NCBI GenBank assembly: GCA_020634035.1
Contig: JACKCM010000007.1
Coordinates: forward strand, 42,508 to 106,507
DNA length: 64,000 bases
Direction of reading: 5' to 3'
Origin: Candidatus Obscuribacterales bacterium
GTDB lineage: Bacteria > Cyanobacteriota > Vampirovibrionia > Obscuribacterales > Obscuribacteraceae
The translations under genes were made by a program, and so were the position numbers. This document shows, piece by piece, positions 40,207 to 42,730 of the stretch (position 1 is the first letter of the stretch; every line of letters starts with the position of its first letter). The notes beneath the pieces are model-generated. The model saw nothing but the letters and a program-made list of their open reading frames with translations, was not told the origin of the DNA and ran no database searches.

Positions 40207-42378
40207 ATGTCCGACCGCTCTGACAAACCTAAGCCAAAAGAAGTCTCTGCCGAATCCCGGACTGAGCGCGATGCCTCCCGAGCTGGTAGCGACCAGGCTC
40301 ACGCCGACATGCCTGAGCACATGGAAAAATCTCAGAAAGAGAAGGGCGCCTACGAGCAAGCGGGACTAGTCCCGGAATCTCGCGGACCCACTACCGACAA
40401 CTTCGGGCGCCTGGAACTGTCCGAGGTCAAAGACGGCGAGAAAGTCATCTACGTGGCGGAAGCCCCCGGCCGTAACAGCCTCAAAGACAGGCCGGACCCC
40501 GGCACAGCCGCAGCCAACGCCGACAAAGCTGACCCTTATCCCTCATACACGCGCGGTCTTGAAGCCGCCAGGCAGAGCGCGAAGACTCCGGAGGAAGCGG
40601 CGAAGGCAGAGATTGACTTCAACCAGAGCTACATAGAGCGCAAGCTGCGGGCTTCGGGTAAAGACCCTGCCGAGTTGCTGCAGGAGCATATGAAGAGTCA
40701 GGAGCCAGATCAGGATGATCCTGCTCATGGTGGGACATTCAAAGTCCCCCAAAATGTCGCCGAGAAGCACGACGATGGCTCTGTGCTTTTAAAAATCAAT
40801 GTCTCTGACAATGTTCAAGCGGAGGACCGCCCCCCGTTGACCAACAGCCCCGATGGTTGGCTGGAAGCCGGTCGAAGAATAGCCGAGCTGCCGCTCGACA
40901 AACAGTTGCAGATTATAGGCTCTGGTCTTGCCGCCGGTATCAATCAATACCAGCATGAGGAGAACCAACGCAACTGGGGGCGCGTCATTGGCACCGTCCA
41001 GGGTATTGGCGAGGTATCTGTCAATCTCGCCAAAATCGCCGACTTCAGCGCCGCGCTTATTCTGAACGACCATGATCGTGCCGGCAAGATGGGGGCGGAG
41101 TTTGGGCAATCGCTGGGTGAAACCATTGTCGGTGGCGTCAAGCTTTTCAACGCCGCCGATCAGTATCTGTTCAATATCGGATTCACCGGGGATTACGGCA
41201 AACCTTTTCGTGATGTGGTCCAGCTCGGCAGTGCCATGAACGAGAAGTGGGCGGCTTTGCCTCCTGGTGAGCAGGAGCGCATTAAGTTCAAGCTCTTGAC
41301 GGAGCTTGGTGCCGACACGCTGATTGGGGGCGGTGGGCTGCACTCTGCCGGTAAGGCTGGCAAGCTGACAGAGTTTCTTGATGATGTCGCCGGGGAGATG
41401 GCGAAGCAAGGGAAGAAAGTTTTCGACGGGGCGAAGAAGCGCGCCAGGGTCGTGAGGGATGCCGTCGAGGATTATATGCTGCCCGATGCGGTGACTCCAG
41501 ATGGGATGAGGATTAAGATAAAGCCGGCTAGAGAGGCGCCGGACAATGCTGTTTACTCCCAGGCGCATAATCCGGGTGGTTCTGACTTGCCCAATCCGGG
41601 TAATCCACCAGAGCGTGCTTCAGGGCAACTGTCCGGGCGACCAGAGGAGCCCTCGCCGGTGCGAACGGGCGGAGGTCCATCGGATCACCCACCGGAGAGC
41701 CCATCGCACAAGCCACCCCAGCGTGGCTCTCACCATGACTCACCCAACGAACCAGAGCGTCCTGCGGACAAACCTGACCACCGGGAATCTGAGGACGATA
41801 TCTTCAAACCACGAGATATGCATCAAGAGATTATGGATGCTATTGAAGTTTTAGATGAACCCTTGAAAGAGTTTATTGAAAAGTACAAGGTTAAGATTGA
41901 AATCATAGAAAAAATGGAAGATGCATTTCCCGGTGATGTGGAAAAAATGAAATATTTGGGGTCTTATGATTGGGGGCGAAATACTATCTTTGTTCCAAAA
42001 ACAGTGTGGCATAGAGGCGAGTATATAAATAACTTCGATTTAGATTTTGCTATTCGTCATGAGGTAGGCCACGCCGTTAACGCCAAATCACTGGAGAAGC
42101 CAAATCGTTTCTACTCGTCGCCGGTTCGAATAACTGACAAGGATTCATTTTTTATGGAGGCCTTCGCCAAAGATATTCCAAACGTTCCGTCCGATGTTTT
42201 GCGGACCCTCGGATTCGACATTCAAACAGAGAAGGGTCTTGCATTCGCTCGAGACGAAGTTTTTGCAGACACTTTTGCACATGCTACTGGTTTCCCTACA
42301 AAGAATCTTCGTTCGCAGCTAATGAGGAAGTATTTCGTCAACACATTCAAACATATGGAGGGACTTCACGGTGTCTAA
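40207..42378 (+). CDS. polymorphic-toxin-like protein (723 aa) with C-terminal HExxH zincin-like domain (RHEVGH)
   Basis: N-terminal leader SRTERDASR and PEHMEKS. HEVGH lies at nt 42058-42072 with a downstream Glu (MEAFAKD); the RHEVG context is shared with the 822- and 865-aa proteins. Confidence 0.6.
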   Translation: MSDRSDKPKPKEVSAESRTERDASRAGSDQAHADMPEHMEKSQKEKGAYEQAGLVPESRGPTTDNFGRLELSEVKDGEKVIYVAEAPGRNSLKDRPDPGTAAANADKADPYPSYTRGLEAARQSAKTPEEAAKAEIDFNQSYIERKLRASGKDPAELLQEHMKSQEPDQDDPAHGGTFKVPQNVAEKHDDGSVLLKINVSDNVQAEDRPPLTNSPDGWLEAGRRIAELPLDKQLQIIGSGLAAGINQYQHEENQRNWGRVIGTVQGIGEVSVNLAKIADFSAALILNDHDRAGKMGAEFGQSLGETIVGGVKLFNAADQYLFNIGFTGDYGKPFRDVVQLGSAMNEKWAALPPGEQERIKFKLLTELGADTLIGGGGLHSAGKAGKLTEFLDDVAGEMAKQGKKVFDGAKKRARVVRDAVEDYMLPDAVTPDGMRIKIKPAREAPDNAVYSQAHNPGGSDLPNPGNPPERASGQLSGRPEEPSPVRTGGGPSDHPPESPSHKPPQRGSHHDSPNEPERPADKPDHRESEDDIFKPRDMHQEIMDAIEVLDEPLKEFIEKYKVKIEIIEKMEDAFPGDVEKMKYLGSYDWGRNTIFVPKTVWHRGEYINNFDLDFAIRHEVGHAVNAKSLEKPNRFYSSPVRITDKDSFFMEAFAKDIPNVPSDVLRTLGFDIQTEKGLAFARDEVFADTFAHATGFPTKNLRSQLMRKYFVNTFKHMEGLHGV

Positions 42379-42730
42379 GAAGTCTGAAGACAAAGAAAAG
42401 AATGCAGGGGATAAGATGATAGATTATCTGACTCGCGGTGTCTCAGATGAAGACCGTGAGCCTCGCGAAGGTGAAGTGGATTTGATTGAGGGTTACAGCA
42501 GAGAGATTGCCTTTATCGGCGAAGACGGAACAATCTGTATAAACTACGTCGGTCAAAAAGATTATGTCTCTGGAGGAGGTTGGGAGCAGTTTTCGCCGGA
42601 CGATCCACAATATGGCGAGTATTGTGCAAAGTACGGATTGGAGAAACCTGGAGACAGCAAGTGTATCTTAAGGCGCCTTGTCGACGGAGAGTGGGTTGAG
42701 ATTGATGATAAGCAAGATCAGGCAAATTGA
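42371..42730 (+). CDS. putative cognate immunity protein (119 aa)
   Basis: A GTG start overlaps the toxin stop by 8 bp (GTGTCTAA); small acidic protein. Confidence 0.45.
   Translation: MSKKSEDKEKNAGDKMIDYLTRGVSDEDREPREGEVDLIEGYSREIAFIGEDGTICINYVGQKDYVSGGGWEQFSPDDPQYGEYCAKYGLEKPGDSKCILRRLVDGEWVEIDDKQDQAN

Follow-up and report, generated by a model that had tools for sequence, protein, structure and literature searches.

Introduction

Polymorphic toxins combine a conserved scaffold with recombining C-terminal toxin domains and adjacent immunity genes (Zhang et al. 2012, PMC3482391). Metallopeptidases resembling anthrax lethal factor (LF), termed ALF-like, are a recognised toxin-domain class of polymorphic and PVC-type toxins, and Imm-SuFu is listed as a partner of this domain, Tox-ALFMPTase (Zhang et al., PMC3482391). 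Here we describe a two-gene locus, encoding proteins of 723 and 119 amino acids (aa), in a 64,000-nucleotide stretch of contig JACKCM010000007.1 (positions 42,508 to 106,507; assembly GCA_020634035.1) from a Candidatus Obscuribacterales bacterium. This whole stretch is hereafter called the window, and coordinates refer to it. We propose, with a probability of about 0.78, that the two genes form a polymorphic toxin–immunity pair in which a modular toxin ends in a predicted zinc metallopeptidase domain with an LF fold. The evidence, drawn from sequence comparison and structure models, consists of the modularity of the family, the predicted fold of the C-terminal domain, its conserved active-site residues, the replacement of C-termini between relatives, the strict co-variation of the small gene and the tight coupling of the two genes.

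The locus resembles the CdiA-CT, Rhs, LXG and MafB systems in its scaffold, recombining C-termini, downstream immunity gene, orphan immunity genes and arrays, and its family has CdiA-EC869-like, colicin DNase, WHH and deaminase toxin domains and SUKH immunity in common with known polymorphic systems. It differs from them in having no signal peptide and no two-partner secretion (TPS)/FHA, PAAR/VgrG, LXG/WXG, MafB-N, Rhs/YD, MuF or PVC-metallopeptidase region. Its scaffold is instead an unannotated Gly-rich helical domain of ~240 aa, found only in Obscuribacterales/Melainabacteria and accompanied by several exchangeable leader types. Unlike the Imm-SuFu partner of Tox-ALFMPTase, the putative immunity protein belongs to a new 119-aa family. 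No toxin domain like LF or the Pro-Pro endopeptidases (PPEPs) has previously been reported from Cyanobacteria or Melainabacteria.

Results

Two overlapping genes

The features of the locus, all on the plus strand, are as follows.

40207–42378, plus: predicted polymorphic toxin gene, 723 aa, ATG start (open reading frame (ORF) list; homologues with a common centre and variable C-termini)
40207–40386, plus: charged leader, residues 1–60, type A1, without signal peptide (maximum Kyte-Doolittle hydropathy over 10 residues, KD(10), 0.09; 40% charged)
40819–41541, plus: Gly-rich all-helical central domain, residues ~205–445 (hidden Markov model (HMM) match over residues ~208–439, E 1.8e-112)
41572–41811, plus: Pro-rich linker, residues 456–535, 24% Pro (composition analysis)
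41812–42375, plus: C-terminal toxin domain, residues 536–723, predicted anthrax-lethal-factor-like (M34/ATLF-like) zincin
42058–42072, plus: HEVGH, predicted zinc-binding and catalytic motif, residues 618–622, with H618, E619 and H622 (alignment)
42256–42258, plus: E684 in the DEVFAD (ExxxD) motif, candidate third zinc ligand (alignment and model)
42357–42362, plus: Shine-Dalgarno sequence GGAGGG for the 119-aa gene, within the last toxin codons (direct sequence reading)
42371–42730, plus: putative cognate immunity gene, 119 aa, GTG start (homologues lie 3' of HExxH-type toxins)

The public record of the 723-aa protein, MCB9471098.1, is labelled 'hypothetical protein' and derives from a Candidatus Obscuribacterales metagenome-assembled genome, as do the records of the three other large proteins of the window considered below (822, 865 and 2273 aa). 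As the preliminary description of this DNA had it, the 119-aa ORF begins with GTG and overlaps the end of the 723-aa gene by 8 bp (GTGTCTAA). The GTG lies within the final toxin codons (…CAC GGT GTC TAA), 8 nt from the Shine-Dalgarno sequence, and an independent gene call on a public contig encoding an identical protein picks the same start (L014 3552–3911). An internal ATG at 42416 is a possible alternative start, but the GTG is favoured because orthologues from other strains have an ATG at aligned position 1, preceded by a GGAGG-type site, because residues 1–15 are conserved among orthologues, and because the internal Met is not conserved in more distant ones. Start/stop junctions are likewise tight at other loci, with overlaps of 17, 14, 4 and 1 bp, direct abutment, or gaps of 2 or 4 nt. 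That tight junctions are kept across loci favours the translational coupling of the two genes that the preliminary description read from the overlap, although coupled translation itself is something we infer.

A common scaffold with exchangeable C-termini

In a search covering 5.8 billion proteins the 723-aa protein had 68 relatives, and every named one belongs to Melainabacteria or Obscuribacterales with the sole exception of a partial fragment labelled Terriglobales. Residues ~205–460 were common to all 68 first-round relatives; the C-terminal ~190 aa with HExxH were present in only a subset, and the first 200 aa were matched in only six. An exhaustive search of 1.84e9 representatives with a profile of the central domain yielded 178 clusters at 50% identity. 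A scan of a genome collection based on five sequences of this domain gave matches only at Obscuribacterales/Melainabacteria loci, and a scan of viral contigs found no relatives of the toxin family.

When the last 150 aa of the 156 members with a complete central domain were compared, they fell into at least 18 unrelated clusters, the largest being the HExxH type (32/156). Eight Pfam families, mostly known toxin domains, occur at the variable C-terminus: CdiA-EC869-like nuclease, BURPS668_1122 deaminase, WHH, colicin DNase, DUF6932, DUF6883, RelA_SpoT and C39-like peptidase. Because one scaffold carries interchangeable toxin C-termini, which is the architecture described for polymorphic toxins (PMC3482391), the family is, as judged by these comparisons, a polymorphic toxin family with a common scaffold and unrelated, exchangeable C-terminal domains.

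The central domain matches no Pfam model in a scan at E up to 10, contains 14% Gly and lacks transmembrane segments (maximum KD(19) 1.22). Its AlphaFold2 (AF2) model is all-helical with a predicted local distance difference test score (pLDDT) of 59, and a Foldseek search with this model returned nothing below E 0.87. Its matches, to long-helix proteins such as α-pore-forming toxins, IpaB and BAR domains, were judged meaningless.

On one metagenomic contig (L018 3012–4834) the toxin is split at the end of the central domain into ORFs of 319 and 277 aa, followed by two small genes; a frameshift or an error of assembly may lie behind the split, or the gene may be a pseudogene.

The small downstream gene follows the C-terminal domain

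With a pI of 4.35 the 119-aa protein is acidic; it lacks a signal peptide and a helix-turn-helix (HTH) domain and matches no model of Pfam or NCBIfam. Homologues of it are encoded directly 3' of every HExxH-type toxin examined (five loci, E 1e-9 to 1e-42), as listed here with their similarity to the 119-aa protein of the window.

L001: downstream protein of 118 aa, 14-bp overlap with the toxin gene, E 4e-37
L002: downstream protein of 128 aa, 14-bp overlap with the toxin gene, E 1e-41
L003: downstream protein of 129 aa, 2-nt gap to the toxin gene, E 1e-15
L005: downstream protein of 120 aa, ATGA (4-bp) overlap with the toxin gene, E 1e-12
L016: downstream protein of 97 aa, 17-bp overlap with the toxin gene, E 9e-16

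A divergent HExxH type, HExxH-c (P0005, P0009), is followed by a distant relative of the 119-aa protein (E 0.01–0.04) and a truncated paralogue. Behind a family member ending in a deaminase comes a SUKH/SMI1_KNR4 protein, which belongs to a classic family of immunity proteins, and the protein downstream of a cluster-5 toxin is unrelated to the 119-aa family. The small downstream gene thus varies with the C-terminal type and not with the N-terminal type, a pattern that fits a role of the 119-aa protein as the immunity protein of the HExxH toxin. The toxin–immunity pairing suggested in the preliminary description is supported by the swapped C-termini, the co-varying 119-aa family, the SUKH partner and the orphan copy described below.

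A predicted lethal-factor-like zincin domain

H618, E619 and H622 of the HEVGH motif are invariant in 17 aligned homologues. E684 is a likely candidate for the third zinc ligand, as it is nearly invariant in the same alignment (at least 90%) and lies inside a predicted helix of the model (156–174). The AF2 model of residues 520–723, built from this alignment, has a pLDDT of 91.4 and a predicted template modelling score of 0.87; its first 11 residues, which start at residue 520 near the end of the linker, have pLDDT <50. In a Foldseek search with the model, the first 35 matches were all LF or PPEP-3, with probabilities of 0.97–1.0 for the best matches and 0.28 at rank 35. The predicted zincin fold is therefore nearest to LF and the PPEPs.

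Unlike Tox-ALFMPTase, LF and PPEPs (MEROPS M34; PF07737), the domain has no ATLF sequence match, and its identity to its structural matches is 12–16%. When the C-terminal alignment was used for a profile search of PDB sequences, nothing beyond marginal matches to ADAM17 around HExxH (E 0.3) was obtained. Scans against Pfam and NCBIfam with the whole toxin, 119-aa and sister proteins, and by domain to E 10, gave no match. A database search with the C-terminal profile added only five further fragments, of the same lineage wherever named, and gave no sign of this toxin domain on other scaffolds. Because ALF-like metallopeptidases are already catalogued as toxin domains, we regard the C-terminal domain, on its alignment and model, as a divergent new subfamily of a known class that lies beyond sequence-profile detection.

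Cassette displacement in a closely related strain

Comparison with a locus from a closely related strain (L006) places a boundary within the toxin gene, and a second boundary feature lies downstream of the 119-aa gene.

41282–41283: recombination breakpoint relative to L006, at toxin residue ~358; unrelated DNA follows until the orphan immunity gene
42866–42907, plus: 42-nt remnant of the 3' end of a PRiA4_ORF3 gene, cassette boundary (direct repeat family D2)

The two strains have 90% DNA identity (blastn) over the region that starts at the upstream PRiA4_ORF3 gene and ends at position 41282. The N-terminal half of the L006 toxin is 82% identical in aa sequence to that of the window, and its C-terminus and downstream genes differ. 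Farther downstream, L006 carries an orphan gene whose product is 70% identical to the 119-aa protein, with 91% nucleotide identity over window positions 42478–42827, and beyond this gene synteny with the DUF6880 gene returns at 97%. Read from these alignments, L006 is a case of cassette displacement that left behind an orphan immunity gene.

The orphan gene (L006 3089–3445) is itself chimeric, its first ~35 codons differing from the window gene and the rest being ~91% identical in nucleotides. A Fic-domain gene (43141–44760, minus strand) and its flanks (42828–44760) are missing from the otherwise syntenic L006, and by the same comparison this segment has been inserted in one of two close strains or deleted from the other. 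The 3' end of the upstream PRiA4_ORF3 gene, at 39830–40017, recurs as a 188-nt copy with 93% identity 3' of the DUF6880 gene (46468–46655). PRiA4_ORF3 repeats thereby flank the toxin–immunity and Fic–DUF6880 segments, and because they bracket both, they suggest that modules were inserted by recombination at PRiA4_ORF3 3'-end sequence.

Sister proteins in the window

Two further large proteins of the window can be connected to the family, and the features concerned are as follows.

28100–31185, plus: module of the 822-aa gene, with an A2-type leader, an HEVGQ C-terminal domain and a downstream gene at 30571–31185
52569–55166, plus: related predicted toxin of 865 aa, with a B1-type leader, half of the central domain and an HELGQ zincin-like C-terminus
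55171–55647, 55647–56144 and 56171–56695, plus: three tandem paralogous small genes of 158, 165 and 174 aa, 3' of the 865-aa gene (alignment)

The family of the 865-aa protein (8 members) has the second half of the central domain in common with the 723-aa family (hhalign probability 99.3%, E 3.6e-20); in one member, P0075, the match spans almost the entire domain. At the C-terminus, the 865-aa family carries a domain remotely homologous to the zincin domain (hhalign probability 92%, E 5.7e-7), and the 822- and 865-aa proteins have homologous C-terminal domains (E 1e-21). As a single sequence, the 822-aa protein matched neither the central nor the HExxH profile significantly, and its link to the 723-aa family runs only through the 865-aa protein. 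In both sister proteins HExxH is replaced, by HEVGQ in the 822-aa protein (30152–30166, residues 685–689) and by HELGQ in the 865-aa protein (54774–54788, residues 736–740). The region of the 865-aa family that aligns to the toxin Glu reads GLEQT. The HExxQ domains may, to judge from these replacements, be inactivated or mechanistically different toxins that still keep immunity genes. The three tandem genes after the 865-aa gene look like a candidate immunity array for the HExxQ-type domain, and the gene after the 822-aa gene (30571–31185), which has an insertion, is distantly homologous to the gene after the 865-aa gene (E 4.8e-5).

The 2273-aa protein (19796–26617) has no significant link to the toxin family. 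It contains an HExxH motif, as LHEMTH, at residue 2047, and an LPxxEQER-like segment (LPKAEQERL…GGA) whose resemblance to the best-conserved motif of the toxin central domain is not significant (hhalign E 0.009, probability 4%). It has a charged MTD leader and a long Gly/Ala-rich hydrophobic stretch near residues 900–1100, and no immunity-like gene lies downstream of it. The term paralog, used in the preliminary description, is thus suitable in a remote sense for the 865-aa protein and, only by way of it, for the 822-aa protein, and does not extend to the 2273-aa protein.

Leaders as exchangeable modules

The first 60 aa of all four large proteins are free of hydrophobic stretches (maximum KD(10) <=0.79; 32–40% charged), which agrees with the earlier observation that the proteins lack a Sec signal peptide. 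Among 126 full-length family members, none has a signal-peptide-like N-terminus, and the single member above the hydrophobicity threshold (KD(12) 1.53) has its hydrophobic stretch ~20 residues in from the start. The start M-[STAPG]-[DENQHK] (MSD, MTD, MAD, MPD and similar) is found in 98 of the 126 and also in three of the four large window proteins (e.g., 40207–40215); it could be part of an export signal or relate to N-terminal processing.

Profile–profile comparisons with hhalign showed that leader types mostly have no significant similarity to one another. The type A1 leader of the 723-aa protein is common only to P0002, P0003, P0005, P0007 and P0009 (114 bits). Type A2, carried by six central-domain proteins, is matched by the leader of the 822-aa protein (19.8 bits, 0/1000 shuffles, E 3.7e-4 over 556 window ORFs), and type B1 by that of the 865-aa protein (26.8 bits, 0/1000 shuffles; hhalign probability 95.7%, E 8.5e-9). 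Against the A2 profile the 723-aa leader scored 3.1 bits, a value equalled in 61 of 1000 shuffles, and the A1 and A2 types aligned with E=0.04 over 16 residues. Direct BLASTP of the 723- and 822-aa proteins gave one segment with 29% identity over 80 aa and 19% gaps (E=0.002, single comparison). The 723- and 865-aa leaders showed no similarity in BLASTP, leader profiles or hhalign. Leaders are, on these profile matches, exchangeable modules common to proteins with different bodies. A single universal leader motif was also considered and rejected, given the 1.2 bits of the 723-aa leader against a pooled leader HMM (close relatives excluded), no better than shuffles, and the mostly non-significant comparisons between types.

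The preliminary description had proposed a common trafficking leader on the basis of a resemblance between the 723- and 822-aa proteins and a weaker one to the 865-aa protein. The former proved marginal (BLASTP E=0.002, with the A2 score reached by 61/1000 shuffles) and the latter is absent from all three comparisons. Leaders are modular, as that proposal would have them, but the module common to the whole family is the central domain, residues ~205–445, and not the first 60 aa.

Genomic surroundings

The window holds two separate AbiEi/AbiEii (type IV toxin–antitoxin) pairs (11252–12836 and 34267–36004), a DDE transposase (36372–37802), an SNF2 helicase (7514–11134) and a methyltransferase–HNH fusion (32328–34136). 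Since the AbiE pairs, the transposase, the SNF2 helicase and the methyltransferase–HNH fusion occur together, the window can be described as a mosaic of mobile and defence genes.

Discussion

We propose that the 723-aa protein acts as follows. It would begin with a charged leader, which is probably disordered, and an N-terminal region that is helical and variable, the two together making up residues 1 to ~200. Machinery encoded elsewhere would export the protein by recognising the leader, the central domain or both. The central domain would then help the C-terminal toxin domain into the cytoplasm of a competitor; the toxin domain would have to reach the target cytoplasm because the immunity protein is cytoplasmic and the toxin domains of sister members are nucleases and deaminases. 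There the protease would cleave an essential protein. Producer cells and their kin would be protected by the 119-aa protein, an acidic cytoplasmic product of coupled translation that would bind and block the protease. New cassettes of C-terminus plus immunity gene would arrive by recombination in the 3' part of the central domain, leaving the displaced immunity gene as an orphan.

Because none of the known trafficking signals was detected, the export route may be one not yet recognised. We raise only tentatively the possibility that the leaders and central domain mark a route unlike those catalogued for polymorphic toxins, with the 723- and 865-aa proteins, and perhaps the 822-aa protein, as its cargo. 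Effectors of type VI secretion systems (T6SS) with MIX, FIX or RIX domains, and the cargo of extracellular contractile injection systems (eCIS) and PVCs with disordered N-terminal packaging signals, are conceptually similar in being leaderless, with an N-terminal marker, variable C-terminal toxins and scattered immunity genes. Unlike them, the proteins described here have no T6SS or eCIS genes near any locus, and their conserved module is central rather than N-terminal.

Several points weigh against the toxin–immunity proposal. Export of the 723-aa protein is assumed from analogy, and neither a signal peptide or lipobox nor a known trafficking domain (TPS, PAAR, LXG/WXG, Rhs or others) was detected in it. 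A secretion system, for which the preliminary description had recommended a search, was found neither in the window nor beside nine homologous loci, and no conserved accessory genes were found beside those nine loci. The model of the central domain is weak (pLDDT 59) and has no significant structural neighbour, which makes the role given to this domain a guess. The C-terminal domain has no match to Pfam ATLF (PF07737) even at E=10. Finally, the richness of the window in defence and toxin–antitoxin genes (two AbiE systems and the Fic gene) also fits an intracellular role.

Such a role would be that of a toxin–antitoxin or abortive-infection module, in which an unexported 723-aa protein carries a protease that is freed from a 119-aa antitoxin by phage or stress and kills or arrests the producer. 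The missing secretion signal and trafficking domain would be expected of such a module, as would its defence-rich surroundings (AbiEi/AbiEii twice, Fic, SNF2 helicase and HNH-methyltransferase), and homologues adjoin AbiEii at one locus (L016) and a Wadjet-like JetABCD set at another (L017). Variable regions, however, often house both defence islands and toxin cassettes, and the scan of viral contigs turned up no relative of the toxin family. The 600–700-aa scaffold, with a conserved non-catalytic domain and interchangeable CdiA-CT, colicin DNase and deaminase C-termini, argues against an intracellular module, and SUKH immunity, orphan immunity genes and arrays are the signature of exported polymorphic toxins and not of type II toxin–antitoxin systems (PMC3482391). 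The pair also departs from type II organisation in that the toxin is a multidomain protein of 723 aa and its partner, encoded downstream, lacks an HTH or any other Pfam domain. We therefore consider an intracellular module unlikely.

An effector directed against a eukaryotic host or prey, by analogy with the cleavage of MAPKKs by LF, is more doubtful still. The 119-aa protein would in that case be a secretion chaperone, for which a small, acidic downstream protein (pI 4.35) would be suitable, and the LF-like fold of the C-terminal domain would find a ready explanation. Some Melainabacteria, such as Vampirovibrio, are reportedly predators with a type IV secretion apparatus, which also counts in favour of an anti-eukaryote effector. 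Immunity is nevertheless favoured over a chaperone function because the 119-aa gene varies in step with the C-terminal domain and shows no such link to the leader or central region; the L006 toxin has the same N-terminal half and different downstream genes. Small genes that recur as orphan copies and in arrays are characteristic of immunity, and sister members bear nucleases and deaminases with SUKH immunity. That the HExxH domain is no toxin at all, being a non-catalytic adaptor (like LF-N of LF, EF and Certhrax) or a self-processing peptidase next to an unrelated small ORF, is highly improbable, given that H618, E619 and H622 are invariant and E684 nearly so in 17 diverse homologues and that the domain sits where homologues have nucleases or deaminases and has its own co-varying partner.

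As a polymorphic toxin–immunity pair, the locus bears on a poorly described side of its lineage. Obscuribacterales and other Melainabacteria are uncultured, non-photosynthetic sisters of the photosynthetic cyanobacteria, and competition among them is almost undescribed. The family reported here would be a lineage-restricted set of polymorphic toxins of 178 clusters, in which the carrier domain and several of the C-terminal toxin domains lie outside Pfam, and the toxin catalogue would gain a divergent LF-like protease and a new immunity family. The switch from HExxH to HExxQ in the sister proteins would provide a natural experiment on the need for zinc catalysis in such toxin domains. The importance of the family would be greater if its scaffold proves to be the marker of a new delivery pathway.

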